From Candidatus Omnitrophota bacterium (GTDB lineage Bacteria; Omnitrophota; Gorgyraeia; Aquiviventales; Aquiviventaceae), in the NCBI GenBank assembly GCA_016209275.1, contig JACQWM010000004.1, positions 42,243 through 106,242 on the forward strand: a stretch of DNA of 64,000 bases. The letters run 5' to 3'. Position 1 is the first letter of the stretch. Every line of letters begins with the position of its first letter. A program made the position numbers and the translations under genes. The notes below the pieces were generated by a model. It saw only the letters and a list, made by a program, of their open reading frames with translations, did no database searches and was not told the origin of the DNA. This document shows, in pieces, positions 1 to 42,744 of the stretch.

Positions 1-1061
1 AGCAGGGGTTTGAGCGCGTGCTGCTCTGTCTGGGGTATTTGCCCAAGGTGATCCAGGCGTATTGCGGCGATGGCCAGCGATTCGGGCTGTCGATCGAGTA
101 CAGCGTGTCGGATGTCGAGGATGACACCGGCCGGCGGCTGAAGGTAGCCGCACCTCGCATTGAGCAGTACTTCCTCTTGATGTACTGCGACAACTACTGG
201 CCGCTGCGCTTTGACGCGCTGTGGAAGTCCTATCTCGACACCGGGGCCGAGGCCATGCTCACGGTCTATCGCAACGAGGATGGGTACACGAAAGATAATG
301 TCCGCCTCAGCGAAGATGGCGCAGTGCTGTTCTACGACAAAAATCGGGCGACGCCGAGATTGCAGGGTGTCGATATCGGTTTCGGGCTGTTTCGACGCGA
401 GGCGCTGGAGCTCGTGCCAGATGAAAACGTGTCATTTGAGCGCGTGGTCTACCCAACACTCGTGGCGCGGCGCACGCTCTTCGCGTTTCCTACGTCGCAT
501 CGGTATTACAGTGTCAGTTCGCATGAGCGGCTCGGGTTGACTGAGCGTTTTTTGGCGCGAACGCCCGCGGTAATTCTCGACCGGGACGGGGTGCTGAATG
601 CGCGGCCACCTCAAGGGGAGTATGTCACGTCATGGGCGCAGTGGCGATGGCTGCCGGGGGCTCGTGAGGCGCTACGGCTGTTACACGACGCCGGCTATCA
701 GGTGATCGTGATCTCGAATCAGGCCGGTATTGCGCGCGGGGCGATGCGCGCCGAGGACGTGGAAACGATTCATCGGCGCATGCGCGAGGAGGCGGCCGTC
801 GCTGGCGGGAGCATCGATGCGATCTACTACTGCCCGCATCATTGGGATGACGGGTGTGCGTGCCGCAAGCCGAAACCGGGGATGTTCTTTTCGGCGCAGC
901 GGGAGTTTCACTTGGATTTGAGCCGAACACGGTTCTATGGGGATGATGAGCGCGATGGCCAAGCGGCGAAGGCTGCCGGCTGCCCCTTCACCATGATTTC
1001 AGCGTCGTCGACGCTGCTGGACGCGGTTCGGCAATTACGGGAGGATGCGGTCCATGGCTAA
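1..1061 (+). CDS. Bifunctional sugar-1-phosphate nucleotidyltransferase (HddC-like, 5'-truncated at window edge) fused to D,D-heptose 1,7-bisphosphate phosphatase GmhB (HAD-IIIA)
   Basis: The reading frame is open from nt 3 (QGFERVLLCLGYLP..., nucleotidyltransferase C-terminal region). The C-terminal half has the GmhB signature VILDRDGVLN...VISNQAGIARG...AIYYCPHHWDDGCACRKPKPGM. Stop at 1059-1061. Confidence 0.7.
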   Translation, partial: QGFERVLLCLGYLPKVIQAYCGDGQRFGLSIEYSVSDVEDDTGRRLKVAAPRIEQYFLLMYCDNYWPLRFDALWKSYLDTGAEAMLTVYRNEDGYTKDNVRLSEDGAVLFYDKNRATPRLQGVDIGFGLFRREALELVPDENVSFERVVYPTLVARRTLFAFPTSHRYYSVSSHERLGLTERFLARTPAVILDRDGVLNARPPQGEYVTSWAQWRWLPGAREALRLLHDAGYQVIVISNQAGIARGAMRAEDVETIHRRMREEAAVAGGSIDAIYYCPHHWDDGCACRKPKPGMFFSAQREFHLDLSRTRFYGDDERDGQAAKAAGCPFTMISASSTLLDAVRQLREDAVHG

Positions 1062-2103
1062 GCGCGTGCTGATCACAGGACACAACGGGTATGTCGGCTC
1101 GGTGATGGCGCCGCTGATGCTGGAGGCCGGCTATGAGGTGACGGGGTTTGACACGAACTACTACGCGGAGTGCACCCTCGTGCCTGACGCGGTGCGCGTG
1201 CCCGCCATCCAGAAGGACCTCCGGGATGTGGCGGCCCGCGATCTGGAAGGCTTTGACGCCATCGTGCATTTGGGTGCGCTCAGCAACGACCCGATCGGCA
1301 ACTTAAGCGCCGAGTGGACTGAGCAGATCAATTTCCGCGCGTCAGTCCGCTTGGCCGAGCTGGCCAAACAGGCCGGAGTTCCGCGGTTGCTGTTTTCATC
1401 CTCGTGCATCATGTACGGCATGTCAGAAGCGGCCGTGGTCACGGAAGCCTCCCCCCTGGATCCCAAGACAGAATACGCCAGGTCTAAGGTCAAGGCGGAG
1501 CAGGCCATCTCCCATCTGGCCGATGCGAATTTTTCGCCGGTCTTTTTGCGCAACGGCACGATCTACGGCCTCTCGCCGCGGATGCGGTTCGATACGGTGT
1601 TGAACAACCTCGTGGGGGCGGCGGTGACAACCGGCAAGATCACGCTGCAAAGCGACGGCAAACCGTGGCGGCCGGTGGCCCATGTGGAGGACATTTCGCG
1701 CGCCTTTCTCCATGTGCTGCAAGCTCCCCGCGAGGCGATCCACAATCAGGCGTTTAACAACGGCGAGAACCGGATGAATTATCAGGTGATCGAGATGGCG
1801 CGGATCGTGGCCGAGACCGTGCCGGGCGGCACGGTGGAGTGCTTGGCCGATCCCGGGGCTGATCAGCGCACGTACAAAACTGATTTCGGCAAGTTCGCGA
1901 GGGCATTTCCCGACTTCCAGTTTCGGTGGACGGTACGCGAGGGGGCCAAGGAGCTCTATGAGGCGTGTACCGCCATGAAGCTGACCCGAGAGGATTTCAT
2001 CGATCGGAAGTTCACCCGGCTGAAGTGGCTGCGCTATTTAATGGACAGCGGCCGGCTGGATGGCTCGCTACGCTGGAGAACGGCGGTGGAGGCAACGCGA
2101 TGA
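1054..2103 (+). CDS. NAD-dependent epimerase/dehydratase (extended SDR)
   Basis: N-terminal Rossmann motif VLITGHNGYVGS, ~350 aa. GGAGG sits 9 nt upstream of the ATG at 1054. An alternative ATG at 1045 is possible. Confidence 0.65.
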   Translation: MAKRVLITGHNGYVGSVMAPLMLEAGYEVTGFDTNYYAECTLVPDAVRVPAIQKDLRDVAARDLEGFDAIVHLGALSNDPIGNLSAEWTEQINFRASVRLAELAKQAGVPRLLFSSSCIMYGMSEAAVVTEASPLDPKTEYARSKVKAEQAISHLADANFSPVFLRNGTIYGLSPRMRFDTVLNNLVGAAVTTGKITLQSDGKPWRPVAHVEDISRAFLHVLQAPREAIHNQAFNNGENRMNYQVIEMARIVAETVPGGTVECLADPGADQRTYKTDFGKFARAFPDFQFRWTVREGAKELYEACTAMKLTREDFIDRKFTRLKWLRYLMDSGRLDGSLRWRTAVEATR

Positions 2104-2558
2104 GCCGAACCATACACGACGTGAAGATCATCCCGCTGCGGCAGGTGGTCGATGAGCGGGGCAAGATCATGCACATGCTCAAGGCGACTGACCCGCATTT
2201 CATCCGCTTCGGCGAGATCTATTTTTCATGCGCGTGGCCTGGGGCGATTAAGGCCTGGCACATCCACACATCCATGACGCTGCATAACGCGGTGATCTCG
2301 GGCCGGGCGAAACTCGTGATGTACGACGGCCGCAAAGGCTCGCCGAGCTACGGCACGATCCAGGAGGTCTTTCTCGGGGAAGACAACTACGTGCTGGTGC
2401 AAATTCCGCCCGGCATTACGAACGGGTATAAGGCGTACGGCGATCGGCTGGTCATCCTGGCGAATTGCGCCACCGAGCCGCATCGGCCCGAAGAGATTGT
2501 GCGCATCGATCCGTTCACGACGGAGATTCCCTACGACTGGGGGCTGCGGCATGGCTGA
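2100..2558 (+). CDS. RmlC-like cupin sugar 3,5-epimerase / ketoisomerase
   Basis: ~150 aa cupin fold (GEIYFSCAWPGAIKAWHIH...). The ATG overlaps the upstream TGA. Confidence 0.55.
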   Translation: MSRTIHDVKIIPLRQVVDERGKIMHMLKATDPHFIRFGEIYFSCAWPGAIKAWHIHTSMTLHNAVISGRAKLVMYDGRKGSPSYGTIQEVFLGEDNYVLVQIPPGITNGYKAYGDRLVILANCATEPHRPEEIVRIDPFTTEIPYDWGLRHG

Positions 2559-3618
2559 GCTTGTGAATGCGGAGTGCGGAGTGCGGAACGCGGAGTTCGT
2601 TGAGCACTACGCCACAAATCGACGGCCGCGATTAATCGTCACGCGCACACCGCTGCGTATTAGCTTTGCCGGCGGCGGAACGGATTTGCCGGATTTTTAT
2701 GCGCGCGAAGATGGCGCCGTGCTGAGCACGACGATTAACCACTACTTGTACGTGACGGTCAAGCCGCACGGGCGCTTGTTCAACGAAGGCTTTCGCCTCA
2801 ACTATTCCGAGACGGAGCATGTGGAGCGCTTGGATGAGGTGAAGAACCACATCGCCCGCGAATGCCTGAGGTTTTTGCGGATTGATCCGCCGCTGTACAT
2901 CAGCACGATCGCCGACGTGCCGGAGTTTTCCGGCTTAGGCTCCTCCAGCAGTTTCGCGGTCGGCCTGCTGCAAGCGCTCCATGCGCTTCGCGGCGAGCGG
3001 ATTGCCGCCGGACCGCTGGCCGAGGAAGCGGCTCATATTGAAATCGAGGTGCTGCGCCGGCCGATCGGCAAGCAGGATCACTACGCGGCCGCCTTCGGCG
3101 GCGTGAATGTGTTTTACTTTAAGGCCGACGGCCGGGTGACGGTGGAATCCCAGCACGTCGCCGAGGGGGTCTTGGATGAGATGTTTGCGCATTTACTGAT
3201 GTTTTGGACCGGCATCCGCCGGGATGCCAGCACGATCCTGAGCCTGCAGCAACAGCGGACCGAAACGAATCGTGAGTATTTGCAGCAGATGCGCGAGCAT
3301 GCGCGGCAGCTCCAAGCGCTCTTGCGCAACGGGTTTGACCCGGAGCGCTTTGGGCGCATCCTGGACGCCTCGTGGCATCTGAAGCGGCAGTTGACGAGCA
3401 ACATGACGAACGCGCGCATCGAAACGTGGTATCAGCGCGCCAAGCAGGCCGGGGCGTCGGGCGGCAAGATCTGCGGGGCCGGCGGCGGCGGCTTCCTCTT
3501 ATTCACCGCGCCACCGCAGCGGCAAGAGGCGGTCAGAGCCGCACTGGCCGATCTCACCGAGGTGCCGATTCGCTACGAGGCGCACGGCTCTCGGGTGCTG
3601 CTGCCCTCGATGGAGTAG
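2551..3618 (+). CDS. hddA: GHMP-family sugar kinase, D-glycero-D-manno-heptose 7-phosphate kinase (HddA-like)
   Basis: RTPLRISFAGGGTD, GLGSSSSFAVGLL and GGKICGAGGGGFLLF GHMP motifs. Start uncertain (an unusual ~35-aa N-terminal leader). Confidence 0.7.
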   Translation: MAELVNAECGVRNAEFVEHYATNRRPRLIVTRTPLRISFAGGGTDLPDFYAREDGAVLSTTINHYLYVTVKPHGRLFNEGFRLNYSETEHVERLDEVKNHIARECLRFLRIDPPLYISTIADVPEFSGLGSSSSFAVGLLQALHALRGERIAAGPLAEEAAHIEIEVLRRPIGKQDHYAAAFGGVNVFYFKADGRVTVESQHVAEGVLDEMFAHLLMFWTGIRRDASTILSLQQQRTETNREYLQQMREHARQLQALLRNGFDPERFGRILDASWHLKRQLTSNMTNARIETWYQRAKQAGASGGKICGAGGGGFLLFTAPPQRQEAVRAALADLTEVPIRYEAHGSRVLLPSME

Positions 3619-3621
3619 ACG

Positions 3622-4602
3622 ATGACCCAACGCATTTTGATCACCGGGGCCACCGGGATGATCGGCGCGGCCTTCATCCGGCGCGCGCTGGCGGATGGCC
3701 ATGAGGTGACCGTGATGGTCCGCCGCGAATCAAATCGTTTGCGGCTGATTGAGGTCGAATCGTCGCTGCGCTTGCACGACGGTGATGTCACCGATGCGCA
3801 GAGTGTTGCGAACGCTGTTGACGCGGCGCGTCCTGAGGTGGTCGTGCATTTGGCGAGCAGCTCGTTTAATCCTCCGACGATCAGCGCGCAGACGCATTGG
3901 GACGCGATCGGCAAGGGAACCCTGATCATGCTGGAGATCCTCCGATCATGGCCGCAGACGCGGTTCGTCATGACCGGCTCCGCCGCGGCGTACGGCAGTG
4001 GTGCCAGGCTCACCGAGACCCAACCGCTGCGGCCAGCCACCGCGCTCGGCGCGGCCAAAGCGACGGCGAGTATATGGATGCACACCTATGCTCGGCTCTA
4101 CGGGATCCAGGCTGTTGAGCTGAGACTGTTCATGCCGTATGGCCCGTGGGAGCATCCGCGACGGTTGATTCCGCAGACCATCCTCTCTGCGCTCGCCGGA
4201 GAAGAGCTCCGGACCACTGACGGCAGGCAGCAGCGGGATCTGGTGTATGTTGACGATGTGGTGGACGCACTCCTCTTGGCGGCCACGCGGCCGGTCGCCG
4301 CCGGGTCGGTTTTCAACATCGGCTCAGGGATCGGCACGCGGGTGCGCGATGTGGTCGACCGGATTCTTACGCTGATGGGCGATCCGGTGAACGTGATCCG
4401 AGGCGCCTTGCCGACGCGGCCGGATGAAATCCTTGAGATGTCGGCGGATATCACGGCGGCCAAAAGGAAACTCGGATGGCAGCCGCGCATCGGATTAGAC
4501 GAAGGACTGCGCCGGACGATCGCGTGGGTCACGGATCATCGCGAGCTCTTAGAGCACCTGGCACAGCCGCAAGCACCGATCGCCGCCGGCGGCGAACGAT
4601 GA
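3622..4602 (+). CDS. NAD-dependent epimerase/dehydratase (extended SDR)
   Basis: ILITGATGMIGAAF Rossmann motif. ~326 aa. Confidence 0.7.
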   Translation: MTQRILITGATGMIGAAFIRRALADGHEVTVMVRRESNRLRLIEVESSLRLHDGDVTDAQSVANAVDAARPEVVVHLASSSFNPPTISAQTHWDAIGKGTLIMLEILRSWPQTRFVMTGSAAAYGSGARLTETQPLRPATALGAAKATASIWMHTYARLYGIQAVELRLFMPYGPWEHPRRLIPQTILSALAGEELRTTDGRQQRDLVYVDDVVDALLLAATRPVAAGSVFNIGSGIGTRVRDVVDRILTLMGDPVNVIRGALPTRPDEILEMSADITAAKRKLGWQPRIGLDEGLRRTIAWVTDHRELLEHLAQPQAPIAAGGER

Positions 4603-5891
4603 CGGCGTGCGTGGTGTGCGAGTCAACGCGGGTGGAAGCATTTCTCGATTTTGGCACGACCGCATTGGCCAATAAATTTTTGACGAAGGAAGAATTATCG
4701 CGGGCGGAGCCTGCGTTTCCGTTACGCGTCGGGTTTTGTCATGGCTGCACGCATGTGCAGCTGATGGAGCGCGTCGCCCCCCGCGACATGTTCACTGACT
4801 ATCTGTATGTGTCATCGGCGTCGGAGACGCTGACGGCGCATCTCTTCGAACTCAGCGATGTCGTCGCACGGCGATTCCGCCTGGGCGCGGGCGACCTTGT
4901 CGTCGACATCGGCTGCAATGACGGCACGCTGTTGCGGGGATTCCAGCGCCACGGGGTGAAGACGCTCGGGGTGGATCCAGCCAAAAATCTTGCAGCACTA
5001 GCTGCGGAAAGCGGAATGGAGCGATTCGTGGGATTTTTTAATAGCCAAACCGCCACGCAGATCGCGCAGCGGTGGGGTCGAGCCTCAGCCATCACCGCCA
5101 CCAATACGTTCCCGCATGTTCCCGAGCTGCGTGATTTCATGGAGGGCATTCGCACCGCGTTAGCCCCCGGCGGGGTCTTTGTCATCGAAGCGCATTACCT
5201 GCTGGATCTGCTGGAGCAGGCAGCGTTCGATACCATCTATCACGAACACGTGTCGTACTGGGCCCTCGCACCCATGATGGGCCTCTTTGAGCGCTGCGGC
5301 ATGCAGGTCGTGGATGTCGAGCGGCTTCCGATCCATCATGGACAATTGCGTGTCTTCGTGCAGCGAACGGGTGAAGGGCGTGTGCAGCCGAGCGTTGCTC
5401 GACAGCTTGACGTCGAGCGGAGTGCTGGTTTGGATCGGTTGGCCACCTTCCGGGCGTTTGCCGATCGCACGCAGCAGATCAAGCGGCAGCTGAAGGAGCG
5501 GTTGAGGCAGCTGCGCGCCGAGAGCAAGCGCGTGGCCGGCTATGGGGCGCCGGCGAAAGGCAGCACGTTGTTAGGGTTTCTTGAGTTGGGACCGCAAGAG
5601 ATCGACTACATCGTGGATCGAAGCCCCCTCAAGCAGGGCCGGTTCACGCCCGGCTCGCACATTCCAATCGTGCCGGCAGAGCGCTTGCTTGAGGATCAGC
5701 CCGATGTGGTGGTCGTGCTCGCCTGGAATTTTCTCGACGAAATTATGGATCAGCAACAGGAATATCTGCGGCGTGGGGGGACATTTCTTCTTCCTGTGCC
5801 TGAGGTTCGCCTCATTACAGCCGAAAGCTCGCGCTTTCGGCATTCCGCGGCGACCCCGATGGTCACCGCTTCACGAGGAGAGGGTGCATGA
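4599..5891 (+). CDS. NDP-hexose C-methyltransferase (TylCIII-like class I SAM MTase with N-terminal Zn-ribbon)
   Basis: N-terminal CxxC...CxxC (ACVVCES...CHGCTH), SAM motif VVDIGCNDGTLL, and a C-terminal C-methyltransferase-type domain. ATGA overlap with the upstream gene. Confidence 0.6.
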   Translation: MTACVVCESTRVEAFLDFGTTALANKFLTKEELSRAEPAFPLRVGFCHGCTHVQLMERVAPRDMFTDYLYVSSASETLTAHLFELSDVVARRFRLGAGDLVVDIGCNDGTLLRGFQRHGVKTLGVDPAKNLAALAAESGMERFVGFFNSQTATQIAQRWGRASAITATNTFPHVPELRDFMEGIRTALAPGGVFVIEAHYLLDLLEQAAFDTIYHEHVSYWALAPMMGLFERCGMQVVDVERLPIHHGQLRVFVQRTGEGRVQPSVARQLDVERSAGLDRLATFRAFADRTQQIKRQLKERLRQLRAESKRVAGYGAPAKGSTLLGFLELGPQEIDYIVDRSPLKQGRFTPGSHIPIVPAERLLEDQPDVVVVLAWNFLDEIMDQQQEYLRRGGTFLLPVPEVRLITAESSRFRHSAATPMVTASRGEGA

Positions 5892-6892
5892 GCCACGAGT
5901 TGCACGTCGTTGAAATCAAGCAAATCAACCTGGAGATGGCCGGAGGCTGCAACCTCAAATGCCCCATGTGCCCCCAGTCGTTCGGCCGGGAAAAGGATTT
6001 CTTGAAGCGGCTCCCGCTGGAAGAATTCCGCAAGATCATCGACCAGGCGATTCCCGTGGGGTTGAAGTATGTCAACCTCAGCGGCTCCGGCGAACCGCTG
6101 CTGCACACCGGCTTGGAGGAGGCGGTCCGCTACCTCAATGAGCGGGGCATTACGAGCATGATCTACACCAATGGGATCCGCTTGACTCCAGAGCGTTTTG
6201 AGAGCCTCTGCCAGGCCGGGTTGACGATTTGCAAAGTGTCCTGCCAGGGATGGGATCGGGACAGCTACGCCAAATGGATGTCGATCGACGCGTTTGACCA
6301 AGTGCGGCAGCAGCTCAAAGCGTGCGTCGCACTGCTGAAGACGAAGGGGTATGCCACCTTTCTCCAAACCAACCATCTCGTGCATGACTATGACCAGCGC
6401 GAGCACCAGACCCAGCAGTACGTGACCAATTGGGTCGAGTATCTGGGCGTGCAGGCGGAAATCTGGCTGGAGCACAACTGGTCCGGCCAGTATAAAGACG
6501 CGATCCCTCGGGAGAATATTTTTCAGGACCGGCCCAAGCGCACGTGCGGACGCCCGATGGGCGGGGTCTTGGAGATTCGCGCCGGAGGACTGGGCGGCAA
6601 ATCGGGTGCTGTCGTGCCGTGCCCGTTCGTGCTGGGGCAGGACTCCAAAGCGGTCCTGGGGCATACGCAAGACACGCCCCTCATGGACATCGTCAACGGC
6701 GAGCCGATGCTCGCCTTGCGATCGGCGCACGTGCGCGGAGATTTCGATTCGGTGGACTACTGCCGCAACTGCGATCAATTGCTAGAGGTCAAAGAGTCGC
6801 TGGTGTGGACCAACATCCCCGGTCGCACGTATGGGCCGAGCCGAATCTCAGGAATTAATTACTTAAATCTGTCCGCGGCGCCATCGCCATGA
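5888..6892 (+). CDS. Radical SAM protein (possible SPASM/twitch C-terminal Cys cluster)
   Basis: CNLKCPMC (Cx3Cx2C) near the N-terminus. Additional Cys residues near the C-terminus (CGRPMG...CPFVLG...CRNC). Confidence 0.7.
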   Translation: MSHELHVVEIKQINLEMAGGCNLKCPMCPQSFGREKDFLKRLPLEEFRKIIDQAIPVGLKYVNLSGSGEPLLHTGLEEAVRYLNERGITSMIYTNGIRLTPERFESLCQAGLTICKVSCQGWDRDSYAKWMSIDAFDQVRQQLKACVALLKTKGYATFLQTNHLVHDYDQREHQTQQYVTNWVEYLGVQAEIWLEHNWSGQYKDAIPRENIFQDRPKRTCGRPMGGVLEIRAGGLGGKSGAVVPCPFVLGQDSKAVLGHTQDTPLMDIVNGEPMLALRSAHVRGDFDSVDYCRNCDQLLEVKESLVWTNIPGRTYGPSRISGINYLNLSAAPSP

Positions 6893-7458
6893 CGGGTCTT
6901 GCCTTCCCAACGACAGAGGTTGCGCCGATCACTACGGATCGGTTGGCGCTGCGCATGATATCAGCCGCTGATGTGACGCCGGTGTATGTTGCGTCGATGA
7001 ACGATCCTGAGGTGGTGGGGTTGACCGAGGCGCGGCACGTGGTGTGGGACCATCAGCGGGTGGCGCAGTTCATTGAGCGATCCAACGTTGAAGGGGTGTC
7101 AACTTTGGTGGGGATCTTCCTGAAAGACACCGGACGCCATATCGGCAATCTGCGGTTGTTCAATTTCCATCCCGTGCATCGGCGGGCGGAGCTGAGCTTC
7201 GTCATTTTTGACAAGACCCAATGGTCGAAAGGCTATGCCACAGAGGCGGTCGGCGCGCTCTGCCGCTACGCGTTTGAGACGATGCGTTTGCACCGCATCC
7301 ACGCGGACTATTACGCGACCAACCACGCCTCAGCCCGGTTGTTCCAGAAGGCGGGGTTCCAGGTCGAGGGCGTCTATCGAGGACATTTCTTCGCTGACGG
7401 ACGATATGTGGATTCCATTCGAGTGGCAACACTGAATCCGACTGAGCAGCGCATATGA
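6889..7458 (+). CDS. GNAT-family N-acetyltransferase
   Basis: RimL/RimJ-like motif pattern (HRAELSFVIFD...GYATEAV...ARLFQKAGF). 189 aa. Confidence 0.65.
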   Translation: MTGLAFPTTEVAPITTDRLALRMISAADVTPVYVASMNDPEVVGLTEARHVVWDHQRVAQFIERSNVEGVSTLVGIFLKDTGRHIGNLRLFNFHPVHRRAELSFVIFDKTQWSKGYATEAVGALCRYAFETMRLHRIHADYYATNHASARLFQKAGFQVEGVYRGHFFADGRYVDSIRVATLNPTEQRI

Positions 7459-8618
7459 CGCGCCCATTCATCCCATCGGCGGGTCCTTCGATGACGGAGC
7501 ACGAAGTCCAGTTAGTGGCTCAGGCCGCCCGGGATGGCTGGTATCTTGGCATGATCAAGTACATTGAAGAATTTGAACGGCGATTCTCTGAGTACACCGG
7601 GATGACCTACTGCTTGGCCACGAATAGCTGCACGGCGGCCATTCACCTGGCGATGCTCGCCTTGCGTCTCGGGCCAGGGGATGAGGTGATCGTGCCGGAT
7701 ATCACCTGGGTCGCCTCGGCAGCCCCGGTGTGCTATGTGGGTGCTCGGCCTGTCTTGGTGGATATCGACCCGGTGACGTGGTGCATCTCGCCCGAGGCGT
7801 TTGAGCGCGCGATCACCCGGCGGACGAAAGCCGTTGTGGTCGTTGGCCTGCTGGGTAACATGCCGGAGATGGATGCGATTCGGACGATGGCCGCCAAGCG
7901 CGGGATTCCGATTATCGAGGACGCGGCTGAGTCGGCCGGAGCCACGTACCGCGGCAAAAAAGCCGGCACCTTCGGCACGATCAACGTCTTCAGCTTTAAT
8001 GGCACGAAGCTGATGGTCACCGGCGAAGGCGGCATGTTCGCCACGAATGACAAGCGCTTGTACCTGCGCGCCAAAGGGCTCGCGCACCATGGCTTGCTGA
8101 TGCAGGGCAAGCGATCAAAATTCTACTGGTCCTATGAGCTGGGGTACAAATACAAGATGACCAATGTCCAGGCGGCCCTGGGGTTGGCGCAATTGAGCCG
8201 GATCGACGAGCTGGTGGCGAAACGCCGGCAAAACTTTTTCTGGTATCACGAGCGGCTGAAGAGTGTCGAGGGTCTGCAGCTGAACCAGGAAGGCCCGCAT
8301 GTGAACAGCACGTTTTGGATCGTGACCGGGATTGTGAGCCCGCGCTACCGGATAAAGAAGGAAGCGCTGGTCAGGAAGCTGGTTGAGCGGAAGATCGGCG
8401 GGCGCCCGTTTTTCTATCCGATCAGCGCGATGCCGCCGTTTACCGCGTACGGCCGGGGCCGATCGATGCGCAAGGCTAACCCGGTGTCGTATCGGATCTC
8501 CCCGTACGGCATCTGCCTGCCATCGTCCGCCGCGCTCACCGAAGCGGATGTGGACTATGTCTGCGAGCAGCTTATGGAGATTTTAACGGCGCGAACCGCG
8601 AAAGCGGTCCTGGTATGA
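7455..8618 (+). CDS. DegT/DnrJ/EryC1/StrS-family PLP-dependent sugar aminotransferase
   Basis: Characteristic N-terminal region and the Lys-region FSFNGTKLMVTGEGGM. Confidence 0.8.
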   Translation: MTRPFIPSAGPSMTEHEVQLVAQAARDGWYLGMIKYIEEFERRFSEYTGMTYCLATNSCTAAIHLAMLALRLGPGDEVIVPDITWVASAAPVCYVGARPVLVDIDPVTWCISPEAFERAITRRTKAVVVVGLLGNMPEMDAIRTMAAKRGIPIIEDAAESAGATYRGKKAGTFGTINVFSFNGTKLMVTGEGGMFATNDKRLYLRAKGLAHHGLLMQGKRSKFYWSYELGYKYKMTNVQAALGLAQLSRIDELVAKRRQNFFWYHERLKSVEGLQLNQEGPHVNSTFWIVTGIVSPRYRIKKEALVRKLVERKIGGRPFFYPISAMPPFTAYGRGRSMRKANPVSYRISPYGICLPSSAALTEADVDYVCEQLMEILTARTAKAVLV

Positions 8619-9679
8619 GTAGCACTGAATCACTGACCGTGCTGATCCCGACCTACAACCGGCATCCCCAGCTGCTGCGGCTGCTGCGGTATGCCGCGAC
8701 GGTCGGCTGCCCCTACCCGATGCGTGTGCTCGACTCCAGCAGCGATCCGCTGACATCAGTGGAGCTGCGCCGCGCGCTGGAAGCAGATCGTATCCGGCAT
8801 GAGCGATGGGCGCCGTCGACACCACCCATGCAAAAGCTGCATGAGGGCTTAGCGCATGTGGCCTCGCCGTATGTGGTGGTGTGGGCGGATGATGATTTTC
8901 TCGTGCCCCGCGCGCTGACCGCCGGTGTGAGTTTTTTAGACGCGCACCCGGACTACAGCGTCGTGCATGGCCGCAGCTATCTTCTGACCGTGGAACAAGT
9001 CAATGGCCATGGCGTGCCGTCACGCCAGCCGTATGGGCAGCGGGCCATCACCGCCGCGACCGCGGGTGAAAGGCTTGACGATCATCTGCGCGGCTACACC
9101 GTGCTCAACTACGCCATCCACCGCGCGGAGCGTTTGGCGCGGAATGTTGCGCAGTGCGTGGAGCGCGGCTTCGGCTACAACTGGGGCGAGATCGCGCTGG
9201 GGAGCCTGGACGCCATCCAGGGCAAGGTGGGAGTGTTGGACCAGCTGTATCTTGTGAAGGAAGGGCATCAAGGGCCGGATGCGTGGTGGACATGGTTGTG
9301 CGCAGGTGCTGCAACTCGGCCGAGCGATGTGTTTGACTGGGTGACAGAGGCGAATTTTCCCTCGGCCTATGCGTCGTTCCGCGAGTGTGTGGCGGCCGCC
9401 CTCTCCCAGGAAGACCGCCTGACCATGGATGAGGCGCGGGACATCGTGAAGGCGGCCTTCTGGTCGTATGCGGCGAGGGCGCTGACGGAAAAGCGGCGCG
9501 CGCATGACGGCATGACACATCGCGATGCGTCGATGCGATGGCGCCGCGCGGCCCGCCGAATCCCCGGCCTTCGAGGAATCGTCCGCGCGGTGCGCGGCGG
9601 CAAGGGCGGGGCCGAGCCCGATTGGCTGCCGATCTATCAGGCGATGACCACGAAAGACGTTGAGATGGTGGCTGCATGA
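8615..9679 (+). CDS. GT-A (GT2-like) glycosyltransferase-like protein, paralogue 1 of 3
   Basis: LIPTYNR N-terminus and an acidic WADDDFLVP motif. Its C-terminal Arg-rich helix is shared with the next two genes. Confidence 0.5.
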   Translation: MSSTESLTVLIPTYNRHPQLLRLLRYAATVGCPYPMRVLDSSSDPLTSVELRRALEADRIRHERWAPSTPPMQKLHEGLAHVASPYVVVWADDDFLVPRALTAGVSFLDAHPDYSVVHGRSYLLTVEQVNGHGVPSRQPYGQRAITAATAGERLDDHLRGYTVLNYAIHRAERLARNVAQCVERGFGYNWGEIALGSLDAIQGKVGVLDQLYLVKEGHQGPDAWWTWLCAGAATRPSDVFDWVTEANFPSAYASFRECVAAALSQEDRLTMDEARDIVKAAFWSYAARALTEKRRAHDGMTHRDASMRWRRAARRIPGLRGIVRAVRGGKGGAEPDWLPIYQAMTTKDVEMVAA

Positions 9680-17393: not shown

Positions 17394-17439
17394 GCGCGCG
17401 AGACGCACGCGACGTCCCATGCGATCTATCGCGGAGTTG

Positions 17440-18222
17440 ATGGATCTTCATGGCCGACGCGCCGTGGTGACGGGTGGGGCCGGGCATGTGGGGCGGGTCA
17501 TCGGCGCAACACTCATCGAGCTAGGTGCGACGGTGACACTGCTGGATCTCGACGCGTCCGCCGTTCGCGCGCGCGCCCGGGAACTCTCGAGATCCGGAAG
17601 CGGCGAAGCGCTCGGGCTGGCGTGCGACTTGACGGATGAGGCCGAGACGCGCGGCACGCTGCGGACCGCGGTCAAGGCGATGGGCGGAGTCGACATTCTG
17701 ATTCACAATGCCGCCTATGTGGGCAACCTGTCTCGGCCTGGCTGGTCGGTGCCGTTTGAGCAGCAAACCGTGGAGGGGTGGGATGCTGCGCTGCGTGTGA
17801 ATTTGACCGCGGCATTTGTGATGGCGCAGGAAACCCACAAGGCGCTGGGTGCCTCAGGCCATGGCAGCATCGTTCTGATCGGCTCCATCTATGGCGTTTC
17901 CGCGCCGGACTTTCGTCTCTATGAGGGGACCGCGATGGCCAACCCGGCGGCGTATGCGGCGTCCAAAGGCGGGCTGCTGCAATTGATGCGGTATTTAGCT
18001 ACGTGGCTCGCCCCCCGGGTGCGGGTCAATGCCATTTCTCCCGGCGGGCTGTTGCGCGGCCAGCCGAGCAGCTTCCAACAGCGCTACGTAGAGCGGACAC
18101 CGCTTGGCCGGATGGGAACCGAGGAGGATGTGAAAGGTGCGGTCGCCTACCTCGCCAGCGATCTTTCGGCATACGTCACAGGACATAATCTGATGGTGGA
18201 TGGAGGATGGACCGCGTGGTGA
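17440..18222 (+). CDS. SDR-family short-chain dehydrogenase/reductase
   Basis: RAVVTGGAGHVGR Rossmann motif and the SDR catalytic YxxxK region (YAASKGG). Alternative in-frame starts at 17380 and 17419. Confidence 0.6.
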   Translation: MDLHGRRAVVTGGAGHVGRVIGATLIELGATVTLLDLDASAVRARARELSRSGSGEALGLACDLTDEAETRGTLRTAVKAMGGVDILIHNAAYVGNLSRPGWSVPFEQQTVEGWDAALRVNLTAAFVMAQETHKALGASGHGSIVLIGSIYGVSAPDFRLYEGTAMANPAAYAASKGGLLQLMRYLATWLAPRVRVNAISPGGLLRGQPSSFQQRYVERTPLGRMGTEEDVKGAVAYLASDLSAYVTGHNLMVDGGWTAW

Positions 18223-19268
18223 TGAACGTCGACATCGCTGGGCATCGCGTGGGTTTGGGACACCGGTGTGTGATCATCGCCGAGGCCGGGGTCAATCACA
18301 ACGGCAGCATCGAGACGGCGCGCCGGTTGGTGGATGCGGCGGTGGATGTCGGCGCTGATGCCGTGAAGTTTCAGGCTTTTTCCGCCCAGCGGCTCGTGGC
18401 CGCCTCTGCGCCGAAGGCGGCGTACCAGGCGCGCACCACCGGCGCAGGCGAGTCGCAGCTGGCGATGCTTACGCGCCTGGAATTATCCGCGCGCGATCAT
18501 CAGGACCTCTTCGCCTACTGCCGGCAGCGAGGGATCATGTATCTGTGCACGCCATTCGATGAGGCGAGTGCGGATTTCTTGGCCGAGCTCGGTGTAGCGG
18601 CATTTAAGTTGCCATCCGGAGAGCTGACCAACCTGCCGTTGCTTGCGCACGTGGCGAGGAAGGGCAGGCCGATACTGGTGTCAACCGGGATGGCCACCCT
18701 CGCCGAGGTCCGCAGCGCGGTGGAGGCCATCCGGCAGGCAGGGAATCCGCCGCTGATTCTGCTGCATGCGGTGAGCAGCTATCCGGCCGATGCGGCCGAT
18801 GCGAATCTCAGGGCCATGCAGACGATGGGCGATGTGTTCGGCGTGCCGGTGGGGTATTCAGATCATACGCTCGGCATCGAAGTGGCGTTGGCGGCGGTCG
18901 CCCTGGGTGCGTGCGTCATTGAAAAGCACGTCACACTGGACCGCACGCTGCCCGGGCCTGACCACCGCGCGTCGCTTGAGCCGCATGAGTTCGCCTCGTT
19001 GGTGCGAGGCATCCGAACGGTGGAAGCCTCACTTGGCCACGGGCGCAAAGAGCCGGCGGCGAGCGAAGCGAACACGGCGGCGGTGGCGCGCAAGAGCCTG
19101 GTGGCGGCGCGGCCGATTGCTCGGGGCAGTGTGGTGACGGCTGATGCCGTGGCGATCAAGCGGCCGGGGACCGGCCTAGCACCCACCGAGCTTTCGCGCA
19201 TCGTGGGAAAAATCGCCGCGGAAGATATTCCGGCGGATGCGCTCTTTACCCTGGAGATGCTGACATGA
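18207..19268 (+). CDS. neuB: N-acetylneuraminate synthase family (NeuB/LegI-like) with C-terminal SAF domain
   Basis: CVIIAEAGVNHNGS...AVKFQAF signature. ~350 aa, consistent with NeuB plus SAF. Start could instead be 18222. Confidence 0.8.
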   Translation: MDRVVMNVDIAGHRVGLGHRCVIIAEAGVNHNGSIETARRLVDAAVDVGADAVKFQAFSAQRLVAASAPKAAYQARTTGAGESQLAMLTRLELSARDHQDLFAYCRQRGIMYLCTPFDEASADFLAELGVAAFKLPSGELTNLPLLAHVARKGRPILVSTGMATLAEVRSAVEAIRQAGNPPLILLHAVSSYPADAADANLRAMQTMGDVFGVPVGYSDHTLGIEVALAAVALGACVIEKHVTLDRTLPGPDHRASLEPHEFASLVRGIRTVEASLGHGRKEPAASEANTAAVARKSLVAARPIARGSVVTADAVAIKRPGTGLAPTELSRIVGKIAAEDIPADALFTLEMLT

Positions 19269-21137: not shown

Positions 21138-22096
21138 GCATCGCGAACAGAAGACGTATTGGATCGAACGGAAACGAGATCCGTATGGCAGCGCTGCCCT
21201 CTGTGAGCGGCGCAGGAGGGTGGGAATCTGATGGTCTTTGCGAAGTGGAATCCTTCTATGATCTGATGTCCGAGGGCGCTGATTTCTCCTACTATCAGGA
21301 CCTCGGGCCAGGCAAATACGAAGAGCATTATTACAATCCGGATGGGGTCATCCTGTTTCCCGCGGCGCGGCAGCTGTATTGGTTTGGCGTGTCGCATCTC
21401 TCGGTTGGCACGCTTCGCCCTGGAGTTCGGGGCTATGTGCCGTGGAATCTCTGGAGAAAGAAATTCGTGTTTGCGTACCAGGGCAATCGCGTGAGCATCT
21501 TGCCGTACTCGTTCTGGCACGTGCCGGCGGGGGCGGCCGATCCCATGCGTGGGCAGTCCGCGGTGAAAGTCGCATACGCCGTCGGCCAGCGATTCCAACG
21601 GCTGTGCGATGTGCGCCCCGAAGAAGGAATGCCAGCGCAGGCGCTGGAGGCGATCGCCTCAGCGTGGAAGACGCATCGACGGCTCAAGATCGGGGTGACG
21701 ATCGGCCACAGCGTGGCGATGTTTGACGTCCGAACCGCATTTTTTGAGCGCGGGATTTTTTCGTTTTCTTCGAAGATCATCGTGATTCCTGATGCGGATG
21801 CCACGGCATTTTCCTGGGATCGCGCGTCGCTCGGCCACGTGTGCGTGTCAACGGACGGCACCTGCTCGATGGTGCAGGAAAAGCGCCCGCGGGCGGCCTG
21901 GAAGCATCAGCTCGCGGCGCTCTGTCCCGGGGTGATCGGCGCCCATCAGCTCCTTGAGCATTCTCCGCGGCCCGTTCAAGAATGGTGCCGCGCGATGCTG
22001 CGCGGTCCATCGCAAATGCTGCTGCGGTGGCTCGCGCCCTACGAGGTCAAGCAGCTCCGGTGCCCGTTTACGGTGTTTGTGAGCGAAAATACATGA
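21134..22096 (+). CDS. Hypothetical protein
   Basis: 320-aa ORF in operon context (ATGA coupling on both sides). No recognisable motif. Confidence 0.35.
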   Translation: MSIANRRRIGSNGNEIRMAALPSVSGAGGWESDGLCEVESFYDLMSEGADFSYYQDLGPGKYEEHYYNPDGVILFPAARQLYWFGVSHLSVGTLRPGVRGYVPWNLWRKKFVFAYQGNRVSILPYSFWHVPAGAADPMRGQSAVKVAYAVGQRFQRLCDVRPEEGMPAQALEAIASAWKTHRRLKIGVTIGHSVAMFDVRTAFFERGIFSFSSKIIVIPDADATAFSWDRASLGHVCVSTDGTCSMVQEKRPRAAWKHQLAALCPGVIGAHQLLEHSPRPVQEWCRAMLRGPSQMLLRWLAPYEVKQLRCPFTVFVSENT

Positions 22097-23655
22097 GCGT
22101 GCGGATCATCCCGCGTCTTGACATCAAAGGCCCCAACCTGGTGAAGGGCATTCACCTGGAGGGGCTGCGGGTGTTGGGACGGCCTGAACCGTTCGCGCGT
22201 TGCTACGCTGAGCACGGCGCGGATGAATTGTTGTTCATGGATGCGGTGGCCAGCTTGTATCAGCGTAACAGCCTGCTCGATTTGATTTCGCGGACCTCGC
22301 GGGAAATCTTCATCCCGCTGGCCGTCGGCGGCGGGCTGCGTTCGATTGACGATATCCGGATGGTCTTGCGCGCAGGCGCTGATAAAGTGTCGCTGAACAC
22401 GGCGGCCATCCAGAGGCCTGAGCTGATCCGTGAAGCCGCCCAGCGCTTCGGCAGCTCAACCATCGTCGTATCGATCGAGGCGATCAAGAGACCTGATGGG
22501 TCCTATGAGGCGTACACCGACAATGGACGGGAGCGCAGCGGGGTGGATGCGATGGCGTGGGCGCGCCGTGCGGCCGAGCTCGGAGCCGGGGAGCTGCTGG
22601 TGACCTCGATCGACCGCGAAGGCACGGGCAAAGGATTCGATGTGGAGTTGACGCGCGCCATCGCAGAATCGGCGCCGATTCCGGTGATTGCGTGCGGAGG
22701 AGCTGGCCAACTCGCCCATGTGGAGGAGGTTGTCGCGGCCGGGCGCGCGGATGCGGTCTGCCTGGCGTCGATGCTGCATTATGCCGATGGCGCTCCCCGA
22801 ACCGCGGAACATGTGGCGGCCCAGGAAGGCAACACCGAGTATCTGAAGAGCCGCCGAGGATTTTCCAAGGTGCGCGGAGCCACACTCGGGGAGATCAAAT
22901 CATTTCTTGCATCGAAACACGTCGAGTGCCGACCAGGGGACGGTGCTCTTTTTCGATGCTCGAAAAAGAGCACCGTCCCCGCACCGACCGTCGCGATCAT
23001 CGACTATGAGATGGGCAATCTCTTCAGCGTCAAACACGCCTGCGAGCATGCCGGCATGCAGGCGATCATCACCTCCTCGCGCGAGGCGATCCAGTCGGCC
23101 GATGCGATCATCCTGCCGGGTGTTGGAGCCTTCGGCGATGCGATGGCGGCCTTAAGACGGCTGGATCTGGTCAGCCTGCTGAAGGAATGCGCAGCGTCAG
23201 GCAAACCGTTGATGGGAATCTGTCTTGGCATGCAACTGCTGATGACGGAAAGCGAGGAGTTCGGGCGCCACCAAGGGCTGGGCATCATTGAGGGCGATGT
23301 GGTGCGACTCAGTCCAGGGGCTTATGACGGGCGGGCCATGAAAGTGCCCCAGGTGGGATGGAATCGGATTACGCCAACGGCCCCGGAAGCATGGCGCAAC
23401 AGCCTCTTGGCGGACACGCCGCCCGGGGCGTGGACGTATTTCGTCCATTCGTTTTATGCCCGTCCAGCCGATCCTGAGGTGATGGTGTCCACGACGCGCT
23501 ACGGTGATGCGACGTTTTGCTCAAGTCTTGCGCGGCGCAACGTGTTTGCCTGCCAATTCCATCCTGAGCGCAGCGGGCCGGACGGGCTGCGCATCTACCG
23601 CCAGTTCGCCGCGATGGCGCAACGCACGATGAAGGAGGTGGCTCCACATGCCTGA
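22093..23655 (+). CDS. Fused imidazole-glycerol-phosphate-synthase-like cyclase (HisF/WbuZ-like) and glutamine amidotransferase (HisH/WbuY-like)
   Basis: N-terminal half: IIPRLDIKGPNLVKG...AVGGG (HisF TIM barrel). C-terminal half: VAIIDYEMGNLFSV...CLGMQLL...FHPE (class I GATase triad). Confidence 0.8.
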   Translation: MSVRIIPRLDIKGPNLVKGIHLEGLRVLGRPEPFARCYAEHGADELLFMDAVASLYQRNSLLDLISRTSREIFIPLAVGGGLRSIDDIRMVLRAGADKVSLNTAAIQRPELIREAAQRFGSSTIVVSIEAIKRPDGSYEAYTDNGRERSGVDAMAWARRAAELGAGELLVTSIDREGTGKGFDVELTRAIAESAPIPVIACGGAGQLAHVEEVVAAGRADAVCLASMLHYADGAPRTAEHVAAQEGNTEYLKSRRGFSKVRGATLGEIKSFLASKHVECRPGDGALFRCSKKSTVPAPTVAIIDYEMGNLFSVKHACEHAGMQAIITSSREAIQSADAIILPGVGAFGDAMAALRRLDLVSLLKECAASGKPLMGICLGMQLLMTESEEFGRHQGLGIIEGDVVRLSPGAYDGRAMKVPQVGWNRITPTAPEAWRNSLLADTPPGAWTYFVHSFYARPADPEVMVSTTRYGDATFCSSLARRNVFACQFHPERSGPDGLRIYRQFAAMAQRTMKEVAPHA

Positions 23656-24877: not shown

Positions 24878-24890
24878 GGGAGGAGAGCGC

Positions 24891-25979
24891 ATGGACCACG
24901 ATGTGAGCGCGCTATGCGTCGACCGCCATCGCGCCTTCGGCGAGGCGATCGCGCAGATGGACCGCAATCGCCGGGGGATTGTCCTGGTGGTGGATGAGCA
25001 TGAGCAGCTGGTGGGCACGATCACCGACGGTGATGTGCGTCGGGCGATCCTGAGCCGGATTGACCTTCGCGAGCCGGTGACAGCGCTGTTGGAGACAAAA
25101 TCCAGGACGCCGTATGCCCGGCCGATTACCGCGCCCATCGGGCAAGATCCAGCGACCTACCTGGAGCTCCTCACCCAGCACCGGATTTTGCACCTGCCGC
25201 TGCTCGATGCCCGCCAGCGGGTGGCCGGGCTCGCGACGATGGAGCAGTTTCTCCAGCACCAGCCGCTGGCGCTTCACGCCATCGTCATGGCCGGAGGGCA
25301 GGGCAGCCGGTTGACGCCGCTGACTGAGGATCTGCCGAAGCCGATGCTGCCGGTGGGCGACCGGCCGCTGATGGAAATCGTCATCCAGCAATTGCGCGCG
25401 GCGGGTATCACGCGCGTCAAAGTGTCCACCCATCATAAACCGGAAAAGATCGAGGAGCATTTCGGCGATGGGCAGGCCTTCGGGGTGCGCCTGTCGTATG
25501 TGGCCGAGGACCGGCCGTTGGGCACCGCCGGAGCGTTGGGGCTGGTGGAGGTGCCTGACGAAACCACCCTGGTGATCAACGGCGACATTCTCACGCAAGT
25601 CGATTTCCGGGCGATGTTGGCGTATCACCGCGAGCACCAAGCGGATTTGACCGTGGCCGTCCGCCATTACGATGTTGAAGTGCCGTATGGCGTGGTGGAG
25701 TGCGAAGGGGCCATGGTCCGCCGGCTGACCGAGAAGCCGGTCAGCCGCCTGTTCGTCAATGCCGGGATTTATCTGCTGGAACCGTCGGTCTATCGCTTCA
25801 TTCCGAATGGCGAGCGGTTTGACATGACGGATCTGATCCAGCGGCTGCTGGACCACCAGCGGCCGGTGGCCAGTTTTCCGATCCGGGAATATTGGCTGGA
25901 CATCGGCCAGCATGCGGATTATCAGTTGGCGCAGGAGCATGCCAAAACGCTGAATCTGGCAAAGGAGGCTGCCGAATGA
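24891..25979 (+). CDS. CBS-domain-containing sugar-phosphate nucleotidyltransferase (PtmE-like)
   Basis: N-terminal CBS pair (VGTITDGDVRRAI...), then the NTP-transferase motif MAGGQGSRLTPLT...KPML. Confidence 0.7.
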   Translation: MDHDVSALCVDRHRAFGEAIAQMDRNRRGIVLVVDEHEQLVGTITDGDVRRAILSRIDLREPVTALLETKSRTPYARPITAPIGQDPATYLELLTQHRILHLPLLDARQRVAGLATMEQFLQHQPLALHAIVMAGGQGSRLTPLTEDLPKPMLPVGDRPLMEIVIQQLRAAGITRVKVSTHHKPEKIEEHFGDGQAFGVRLSYVAEDRPLGTAGALGLVEVPDETTLVINGDILTQVDFRAMLAYHREHQADLTVAVRHYDVEVPYGVVECEGAMVRRLTEKPVSRLFVNAGIYLLEPSVYRFIPNGERFDMTDLIQRLLDHQRPVASFPIREYWLDIGQHADYQLAQEHAKTLNLAKEAAE

Positions 25980-33356: not shown

Positions 33357-34330
33357 TTCAAACGAGCACCACCGTGCCGCTCTCATCCGTCAAGCCGCTT
33401 GAGGAGGTTTTCCAGTATCGAGCGTTTTGCCTTGAGGCCACGCGCCGAGCGTTGGCCGCAGGGCCGACCACGGTGCGAGCGCGCTCGCCAGTCAGCAACG
33501 CACGGCTTGAGCCGTGGGAAGCGATCGAGGGGCTGCCGTACTCGCGGTGTCCTGACTCCGGCAGCCTGTTGCTGTCACGACTCCCTGCGGATTCCGCGCG
33601 ATGGGCCGAGCTGTTGCGCGAGGTGAGCCGGCACCGCGTGTCATCCCGCGGTTTTTATCCCGGGCTCGCGCAATCGCGCGCCGATCATGTCCACGCGCCC
33701 AAGGTCGAGTGGATGCTCGAGACGATGCGGCTGCACGGCCTGGACCGGCCACGGGTCCTGGAAGTCACGACACCGCCGAGCGCGATCAGCGCGCTGTTAC
33801 AGGCCAGCGGCCGATTTTCAGACCTGCTCGTTGAGGATGAAATGGCGCTCGCCCATGAGCGCACGCCTCGTCCCTCGGCGGATCAGGTCGAGGCGGCGAT
33901 GCTCTGCGAGTCGCTCGATCGGGTGGATGATCCCGCGGCCTTGCTGCGCGCGGTGGCTGGCCGCTTGGTGGATGGCGGATTGCTGTTTGTGACAGCGCTG
34001 GTCGCCTCCGGATTTGACCTGGCGGTCTTGGGGTGCCGCAGCGCCTACCTCTATCCTCCGGATCGCGCCAACTGCTTTAGCCTGCGAGGGCTCTCCTTGC
34101 TGCTGGAGCGCTCGGGGTTTGCGCTGCAAGAGGTGAGCACGCCCGGCATGCTTGATGTGGAGATCATCCAGGCCCATCTGCAGCACGAGGCGTCCTTACC
34201 GCTATCGGTCTTCGAGCGGCAGCTGGTCACGGCGGATCACGAGACGCAGCGCGCGTTTCAAACATTTTTGCAGCAGCAGGCGCTGAGCTCCTTTGCCCGT
34301 CTGGTTGGCCGGAAACATTCGGAGGGTTGA
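33347..34330 (+). CDS. Hypothetical protein, degenerate methyltransferase-like fold
   Basis: RVLEVTT...LCESLDRVDDPAALLRAV...GGLLFV resembles a class I MTase without an intact glycine motif. Confidence 0.3.
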   Translation: MRLIQTSTTVPLSSVKPLEEVFQYRAFCLEATRRALAAGPTTVRARSPVSNARLEPWEAIEGLPYSRCPDSGSLLLSRLPADSARWAELLREVSRHRVSSRGFYPGLAQSRADHVHAPKVEWMLETMRLHGLDRPRVLEVTTPPSAISALLQASGRFSDLLVEDEMALAHERTPRPSADQVEAAMLCESLDRVDDPAALLRAVAGRLVDGGLLFVTALVASGFDLAVLGCRSAYLYPPDRANCFSLRGLSLLLERSGFALQEVSTPGMLDVEIIQAHLQHEASLPLSVFERQLVTADHETQRAFQTFLQQQALSSFARLVGRKHSEG

Positions 34331-36076: not shown

Positions 36077-36082
36077 TCGCCC

Positions 36083-37147: not shown

Positions 37148-37154
37148 GAGGGGC

Positions 37155-37316
37155 ATGATGAGCAAAGGACGCGTCCTTCGGGAATTTTGGCAGTTCCTCT
37201 GGCAAGAAAAAAAGTTCTGGCTGATTCCGATTGTGGTGGTGCTGGTCCTCTTCGGCGCGCTGCTGGTCTTTTCGCAAAGCAGCGCGGTGGCCCCCTTTAT
37301 CTACACGCTGTTTTGA
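37155..37316 (+). CDS. SxtK-like small membrane protein (53 aa; not in the supplied ORF track)
   Basis: MMSKGRVLREFWQFLWQEKKFWLIPIVVVLVLFGALLVFSQSSAVAPFIYTLF. Its stop overlaps the carbamoyltransferase ATG (TGATG). Confidence 0.45.
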   Translation: MMSKGRVLREFWQFLWQEKKFWLIPIVVVLVLFGALLVFSQSSAVAPFIYTLF

Positions 37317-39148: not shown

Positions 39149-39164
39149 CGAAAGGAGTCAGGGC

Positions 39165-41718: not shown

Positions 41719-41835
41719 TGCGAGGATGGTGGGGTCGTCTCTGGGCGCGCGTGCGATCGCTATTCTCTCGGAAGAAAAAAACTGAGTCCGGCGCGCAGAA
41801 AAATATTTACCCCATGTGGTAGCCAGGGGATGCCG

Positions 41836-42732: not shown

Positions 42733-42744
42733 CCCGGAGCGGCC

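Follow-up and report, generated by a model that had tools for sequence, protein, structure and literature searches.

We analysed a stretch of 64,000 nucleotides (the window) from a contig of a Candidatus Omnitrophota bacterium (JACQWM010000004.1), which has a G+C content of 62% and carries ~58 predicted genes, all on the plus strand. This report concerns the gene at its left edge, which joins a nucleotidyltransferase domain to a phosphatase domain, and the sugar-nucleotide operon to which it belongs. The open reading frame (ORF) in question, ORF1, is open at the window edge and occupies nt 3-1061 in frame 3 (352 codons plus stop). Its product matches a database protein of 399 aa (MBI4596905.1, here P0001) over residues 48-399 with 100% identity; this protein comes from a metagenome-assembled genome of Candidatus Omnitrophica and is named by NCBI only as an "HAD-IIIA family hydrolase". 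The window holds the 3' 88% of the gene and the first 47 codons lie outside it, in line with the 5' truncation already recognised in a preliminary description of this DNA.

The N-terminal part of the ORF1 product aligns to positions 45-203 of the mannose-1-phosphate guanylyltransferase model NF052502. PF00483 is found in the precomputed annotation of full-length P0001, and it is combined with the HAD domain in 112 of the 120 best database homologs, proteins of ~400 aa. The signature GGxGTRLxPLTxxxPK lies in the N-terminus of P0001, within the portion off the window (a 17-residue stretch), and across 16 homologs G12, G13, G15, R17, L18, P20, T22, P26, K27, D110 and K160 are invariant. Domain match, signature and Rossmann-like fold all place this half among the sugar-1-phosphate nucleotidyltransferases. 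The AlphaFold (AF2) model of the fusion has a pLDDT of 88.9 and a pTM of 0.84. The top Foldseek neighbours of its nucleotidyltransferase domain are GDP-mannose pyrophosphorylases, MurU and RmlA, with TMt values of 0.81-0.88 against HddC and MurU; the HddC structure 6JQ8 came 39th (TMt 0.81). In the PDB sequence search, the HddC structures 6JQ8 and 5XHW were matched at ~5e-15, without being the best matches. These and all the other domain and family matches reported here are far beyond chance.

The second half of ORF1 (match at nt ~561-995, residues ~187-331 of the ORF1 product) belongs to the HAD-IIIA/histidinol-phosphatase type, with 135.6-135.9 bits for TIGR01656 (cut-off 84.15) and 113 bits for TIGR01662 (cut-off 44.6). 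HisB models reached 64-65 bits, with cut-offs of 140 and 443. Each of the best PDB relatives of this half (3L8H, 4PNH, 2GMW and 3L8E) is a GmhB or a GmhB-like protein, the first three at E-values from 2.5e-32 to 5e-24. The DxD nucleophile D240/D242, K336 and D361/D362/D365 are invariant in the 16 homologs, as is the zinc loop C324-x-H326-x5-C332-x-C334, so that both the zinc loop and the closest structures are those of GmhB. The preliminary description had proposed a nucleotidyltransferase fused to GmhB; PF00483 on the full-length protein and a TIGR01656 score above the cut-off bear it out, and the sequence comparisons confirm ORF1 as a genuine fusion of a predicted nucleotidyltransferase with a predicted GmhB-type phosphatase. 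Domain identities and catalytic motifs are established at this level.

The same description had read the heptose pathway as split, its isomerase being far from the fusion. Results showed that the protein MBI4596904.1 (P0361), annotated as "SIS domain-containing protein", carries the accession that immediately precedes the fusion's, both proteins being encoded on one source contig of 162,391 bp. A second, distal SIS protein of the window (MBI4596937.1) has an accession offset of +32 from the fusion and is the 33rd gene by count of window genes, and this agreement indicates that accession numbers track gene order on the source contig. P0361 clusters under the Logan representative P0122, carried on a near-identical 5.3-kb contig (L088) whose sequencing project also holds exact copies of other window genes. 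On L088 the stop codon of the SIS gene overlaps the start of the fusion ORF, and the last 34 of the 38 residues with which that ORF begins are identical to residues 1-34 of P0001, a stretch that differs at 3 positions from the next-closest homolog. A GmhA-like isomerase gene would thus adjoin the fusion upstream, ~140 nt past the left edge of the window. It weighs against this placement that the link from L088 to the window rests on P0001 and on accession order, not on DNA overlap. The split appearance is a window-edge artefact, the isomerase gene directly upstream being left outside; the predicted heptose pathway is complete and contiguous.

The profile matches of P0361 are to GmhA/DiaA/MurR-type models only. 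In 52 SIS proteins from comparable loci the phosphate-binding serines are invariant, and position 180 is H in 33, L in 10, D in 7 and V in 2, in a numbering based on what we take to be E65, Q172 and H180 of E. coli GmhA. Upstream of the SIS gene, L088 carries directly a 1070-aa ORF (1391-4603) with B12-binding/radical SAM and ABC-transporter domains. In the closest relative of the locus (contig L001), the B12-binding/radical SAM and ABC-transporter proteins are encoded by separate genes, and a second GHMP kinase gene lies between the two.

That the isomerase would instead be encoded ~34 kb downstream of the fusion (34330-34959), with a transaldolase at ~39.1 kb feeding in sedoheptulose-7-phosphate, we regard as highly improbable. 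GmhA-family SIS and TAL/FSA genes are indeed present at those positions on the same strand, and the distal SIS protein retains the equivalents of H61, D65, E172 and H180, making redundant ketose-phosphate isomerisation possible in principle. However, a GmhA-like gene adjoins the fusion upstream on the source contig, and the distal protein, 32% identical to P0361, differs from all 52 SIS proteins at N52, S55 and S121, which are otherwise invariant. It carries the substitutions S55G, T120V and S121G together with a 6-residue insertion in the phosphate loop, and with a score below the cut-off it is a weak match to GmhA. Moreover, its homologs, of which there are hundreds at ~80% identity, sit in a module of their own; one of them lies on the contig of the closest relative, ~39 kb downstream of a fusion gene next to which a SIS gene of its own is found. 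Of the earlier proposal that a GmhA ~30 kb away and a transaldolase supply the pathway, the existence of the two genes stands, but they belong to a separate conserved module.

We also compared the locus with 80 loci from GTDB species-representative genomes (the source genome not among them, and the best locus 70% identical), which with L001 gives 81 loci counted. A shared cassette emerged, with the order [SIS]-fusion-SDR1-cupin-kinase-[SDR2]-[C-methyltransferase], brackets marking genes that are not always present. The kinase is found in 55/60 loci, the cupin in 48/60 and SDR1, directly after the fusion gene, in 46/60, while a C-methyltransferase follows the kinase or SDR2 in 28/55. Of 74 loci, 36 have a GmhA-like SIS gene immediately before the fusion and 49 have a SIS gene no more than 10 kb away on either side; among the 7 closest relatives it is directly upstream in 5. 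In L001 (75% identity) it is again immediately upstream, and the gene order is otherwise that of the window. Gene order, isomerase adjacency and the conservation of the cassette across phyla are established by this comparison.

The fusion itself had been called uncommon, which understates its spread. Relatives occur at at least 294 sites in species-representative genomes from more than 15 phyla, a count obtained with two peptide patterns only, and an exhaustive search of 1.84 billion 50%-identity cluster representatives returned 973 matches at E<=1e-30. Among the best 150 of these cluster matches, ~100 span both domains in one stretch, with identities down to 31%. The fusion is widespread in environmental bacteria, including Omnitrophota, Nitrospirota, Verrucomicrobiota and Acidobacteriota. 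A literature search, whose coverage was incomplete, found no biochemical description of it. Some relatives are triple fusions, with the orders nucleotidyltransferase-HAD-SIS (P0501), SIS-nucleotidyltransferase-HAD (P0509) and SDR-nucleotidyltransferase-HAD (P0375 and P0437), and those with SIS and SDR domains give independent support for a functional link. Taking P0365 and P0367 together with these four, the third domain is SIS, SDR, a C-terminal methyltransferase or of the PRK/uridine-kinase family; all are metagenome predictions, in which assembly or gene-calling errors are possible.

The kinase of the cassette groups with heptose kinases. Its four best PDB relatives (3K85, 4USK, 4USM and 4N3O) are all heptose-7-phosphate kinases, with E-values of 1e-39 for 3K85, 1.4e-36 for 4USK and 1.3e-34 for 4N3O, against ~1e-14 for fucokinase and 3e-11 for galactokinase. 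In this search the E-values of heptose-7-phosphate kinases are thus over 20 orders of magnitude lower than those of other GHMP kinases, and the motif PxxSGLGSSS aligns with theirs. The concern that the kinase might group with GHMP kinases of other sugars is allayed by this ranking, in which the heptose enzymes come nearest (1e-39 to 1e-35). An independent gene call on another Logan contig (L085) gave the same 355-aa product with the same start. The predicted reaction is the conversion of heptose-7-phosphate to heptose-1,7-bisphosphate. An HddA-like kinase is present where the preliminary description had placed one, but it does not follow ORF1 directly, as SDR1 and the cupin gene intervene (Table 1).

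Table 1. Main features of the window, with the matches on which each assignment is based
Feature	Position (nt)	Strand	Evidence
Nucleotidyltransferase domain of the fusion, 3' part (residues 48-~225 of P0001)	1..536	+	P0001 identity, NF052502, PF00483
Phosphatase domain of the fusion (GmhB-type HAD-IIIA, residues ~234-399), with stop codon	561..1061	+	TIGR01656, NF006506, PDB GmhB
SDR1, extended SDR, intact S/YxxxK triad	1054..2103	+	PF01370
RmlC-like cupin	2100..2558	+	PF00908 at 6.6e-12
HddA-like GHMP kinase, 355 aa	2551..3618	+	GHMP_kinases_N and _C; best PDB including 4USK/4UT4
SDR2, extended SDR, Leu at the catalytic Tyr position	3622..4602	+	PF01370, PF16363
Sugar C-methyltransferase: Zn-ribbon, SAM-MT and C-terminal domains	4599..5891	+	PF08421, PF13489, PF08484 (2.9e-55)
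Radical SAM/SPASM enzyme	5888..6892	+	PF04055, PF13186
GNAT N-acetyltransferase	6889..7458	+	PF13302 at 4.5e-27
DegT/DnrJ/EryC1 sugar aminotransferase	7455..8618	+	PF01041 at 1.3e-112
Glycosyltransferase, GT2-like; candidate transferase for the product	8615..9679	+	TIGR04440, 142 bits (cut-off 70)
NeuB	18207..19268	+	
HisF/HisH-type fusion	21982..23655	+	
CBS + nucleotidyltransferase, PtmE-like	24891..25979	+	
704-aa ORF, GmhB-like HAD-IIIA (residues 7-179) fused to a ~515-aa C-terminal region	30208..32322	+	NF006506, 166 bits
Distal SIS, GmhA-family	34327/34330..34959	+	TIGR00441, 56.8 bits (cut-off 209.45)
Carbamoyltransferase	37187..39148	+	
TAL/FSA-family gene	39114..39884	+	family match
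HpcH aldolase	42745..43599	+	
KdsB-like cytidylyltransferase	45051..45860	+	NF003952, 208 bits (cut-off 193)
Second NeuB-family synthase	59622..60524	+	
Radical SAM protein, 699 aa	60521..62620	+	

The operon runs from the SIS gene, off the window, through the fusion, SDR1, cupin, kinase, SDR2, C-methyltransferase, radical SAM/SPASM, GNAT and aminotransferase genes to the glycosyltransferase. Along it, consecutive frames share 4 or 8 nt, and these start/stop overlaps argue for a single translationally coupled operon. The best PDB match of SDR1 is 6VO6/6VO8 (2e-28), which we take to be Cj1427 of Campylobacter jejuni, a GDP-heptose C4-dehydrogenase, and its motif SSSCIMYG...YARSK is kept in 50 orthologs from the cassette; SDR1 is a candidate C4-dehydrogenase of a nucleotide-heptose. 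The cupin matches PDB entry 3EJK, a "dTDP sugar isomerase", at 6e-31 and is 72-85% identical in most loci with the same gene order, a candidate C3/C5 epimerase or isomerase acting on a 4-keto sugar nucleotide. SDR2 is nearest to GalE and RmlB-type enzymes (~1e-33), and its YxxxK position reads ALGAAK; in 11 sequences including the window copy, this position is Tyr in 5 and Leu in 6. SDR2 may be a C4-reductase or an altered enzyme, possibly non-canonical or non-redox. The radical SAM/SPASM enzyme has an 84% identical ortholog at the same position in L001, and the GNAT and DegT genes are also found as a downstream pair in another of the loci (L005).

In the pathway that we propose, the SIS isomerase would convert sedoheptulose-7-phosphate to heptose-7-phosphate, the GHMP kinase would make the alpha-1,7-bisphosphate, the HAD domain of the fusion would take off the 7-phosphate and its nucleotidyltransferase domain would turn heptose-1-phosphate into the nucleotide-heptose. 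A 4-keto intermediate would then be tailored by SDR1, the cupin, SDR2, the C-methyltransferase, the aminotransferase and the GNAT enzyme, giving a heptose that bears a C-methyl and/or an amino group and is destined for a surface glycan. The substrates, the nucleotide, channelling between the two domains, the 4-keto tailoring and the final product are what we infer here. We consider it likely that the fusion is a bifunctional enzyme for steps 3 and 4 within one contiguous nucleotide-heptose operon.

Several observations weigh against this assignment. The four core enzymes are divergent subfamilies rather than certified orthologs, because each remains below the equivalog cut-off of its heptose model: the phosphatase half narrowly for GmhB (NF006506, 163.9 bits against 178), the nucleotidyltransferase half for HddC (NF049965, 70.1 against 300), the kinase for HddA (NF049969, its best NCBIfam match, 148.3 against 600) and P0361 for GmhA (TIGR00441, 90.6 against 209.45). 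Two further GmhB models, TIGR00213 (100 against 149.6) and the alpha-specific NF050049 (91 against 250), are also below cut-off, and the anomer preference of the phosphatase domain cannot be read from its sequence. All 52 SIS proteins of the cassette have Asp at GmhA position 65 and Glu at position 172, an apparent E65D/Q172E swap. The nucleotidyltransferase domain shows no preference for HddC over mannose-1-phosphate guanylyltransferase, MurU, UGPase or RmlA, and does not by itself establish GDP as the nucleotide.

Part of this evidence would also fit the same enzyme logic applied to a hexose or to another sugar derived from a ketose-phosphate, as the four enzymes all lie under their equivalog cut-offs, the SIS subfamily shows the swap and the best model of the nucleotidyltransferase domain is a mannose-1-phosphate guanylyltransferase. 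We judge a non-heptose sugar unlikely nonetheless: kinase, phosphatase domain and isomerase all have enzymes of heptose pathways as their nearest characterised or solved relatives (the nucleotidyltransferase domain being the exception), the best PDB match of SDR1 is to what we take to be a GDP-heptose C4-dehydrogenase, and we know of no hexose activation route that needs this set of four enzymes. As for the nucleotide, C-methyltransferases and DegT aminotransferases are best known from dTDP- and CDP-sugar pathways, and uridylyl-, thymidylyl- and cytidylyltransferases are found at similar scores among the sequence and fold neighbours of the nucleotidyltransferase domain. Activation of the heptose with ADP, CDP, UDP or dTDP is a possibility that we keep in mind but find rather doubtful, since GDP-mannose pyrophosphorylases rank first among the NCBIfam and Foldseek neighbours of this domain and the heptose routes with a GHMP kinase (alpha-anomer) characterised so far end in GDP-heptose (PMC10680097). 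For the nucleotide-heptose operon proposed here, the nucleotide is most likely GDP.

Comparison with known systems places the fusion more precisely. Like HldE, it unites two domains of a nucleotide-heptose pathway, one of them for the nucleotidyltransferase step. In HldE the steps so united, 2 and 4, are not consecutive; a PfkB-family kinase is combined with a domain of the cytidylyltransferase fold, and the enzyme works on the beta-anomer towards an ADP sugar. The window fusion, by contrast, links steps 3 and 4, which follow one another, and does so through unrelated folds (HAD and PF00483). To call it the reverse of HldE, as had been done, is therefore imprecise, the two not being mirror images. 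FKP, the L-fucokinase/GDP-fucose pyrophosphorylase of Bacteroides, is also a salvage-type sugar-activation fusion with a GHMP kinase and a nucleotidyltransferase, and is the next-best PDB relative of the window kinase; however, it lacks a phosphatase, and the window kinase is a separate gene. HisB-N, the histidinol-phosphate phosphatase that is fused to imidazoleglycerol-phosphate dehydratase, is derived from GmhB (PMC9798254); its domain type, HAD-IIIA/TIGR01656, is that of the window phosphatase, and it too is fused to a pathway partner, but the partner domain and the pathway are different.

The known GDP-heptose route, described together with 4-keto chemistry of the Cj1427 type in PMC10680097, relies on the four activities predicted here and uses them in an identical order, with a kinase of the GHMP type (not PfkB), a HAD-IIIA phosphatase with a zinc loop and a short (~225 aa) PF00483 nucleotidyltransferase. 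Here, by contrast, a single polypeptide covers steps 3 and 4, and the subfamilies are divergent. C. jejuni takes its GmhB from the lipopolysaccharide cluster (PMC10680097), whereas in the window the predicted GmhB activity is encoded inside the operon. The trio of SDR, cupin and SDR adjoining the activation genes resembles the C. jejuni tailoring enzymes (Cj1427, the Cj1430-type cupins and the Cj1428-type C4-reductases), but the window operon also encodes a C-methyltransferase, a radical SAM/SPASM enzyme, an aminotransferase and a GNAT enzyme, and its SDR2 has no catalytic Tyr. The extra tailoring genes imply a branched and/or amino heptose outside the range of C. jejuni products.

The module with the distal SIS gene is common to window positions 28094-46798 (plus strand) and to a relative (contig L086, 1722-16621). 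It begins with a ~705-aa protein of unknown function, a GmhB-like HAD protein, a Gfo/Idh/MocA protein, methyltransferases, the distal SIS and small SxtJ/DUF5989 ORFs, and goes on with the carbamoyltransferase, the TAL/FSA gene, an FkbM methyltransferase, a GDSL protein and the HpcH aldolase, before two SDRs, the KdsB-like cytidylyltransferase and a 2-hydroxyacid dehydrogenase (2-Hacid_dh). The GmhB-like HAD is part of the 704-aa ORF and has a DRDGT motif and a CPHH...CACRKP zinc loop; the ~515-aa C-terminal region of this ORF has no match in Pfam, NCBIfam or PDB sequence searches. In L086 the HAD protein (198 aa) and the unknown protein of ~520 aa (529 aa there) are separate genes. We considered whether the neighbouring 705-aa and 704-aa ORFs could be paralogs and rejected this idea. 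With an isomerase, an aldol-type condensation, a HAD-IIIA phosphatase and a cytidylyltransferase, the module resembles the Kdo route and on these grounds looks like a separate, Kdo-like route to a CMP-ulosonic acid. For the heptose cassette, then, neither the distal SIS nor the "transaldolase" is a missing part.

Two other regions of the window, both on the plus strand, carry sugar-acid genes. Positions 16644-28133 hold a nonulosonic acid pathway of the legionaminic/pseudaminic-acid type, with a PseF-like cytidylyltransferase, an SDR, NeuB, a NeuC-like 2-epimerase, a PglD-like acetyltransferase, the HisF/HisH-type fusion, the PtmE-like CBS and nucleotidyltransferase protein, a LegB-like dehydratase and a LegC-like aminotransferase. 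Positions 59622-63765 hold the second NeuB-family synthase, the 699-aa radical SAM protein and a 389-aa ORF for which no family match was found; together they suggest that the island has yet another sugar-acid branch, its third. Many genes along positions 1-64000 overlap by 4 or 8 nt, and the cumulative GC skew climbs monotonically. The window is one very long glycan-biosynthesis island, and among the ORFs scanned in it we recognised no flagellin, Wzx/Wzy or export genes.

In conclusion, the fusion of two steps of a GDP-heptose-type route into one protein is common among environmental bacteria. We offer as a tentative possibility, well short of our confidence in the fusion and its operon, that the cassette, often with a C-methyltransferase, may be a widespread uncharacterised route to a new C-branched and/or amino heptose for the surface glycans of many mostly uncultivated phyla, in which the fusion would channel heptose-1-phosphate and the Asp65/Glu172 variant of GmhA and the Tyr-less SDR2 would be departures from the C. 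jejuni mechanism. A characterised member could reveal a new tailored heptose, with the understanding of the pathway chemistry staying as it is. Public annotation offers only the name of a hydrolase family for these proteins, and the characterisation of one member would lead to better annotation for hundreds of protein clusters.

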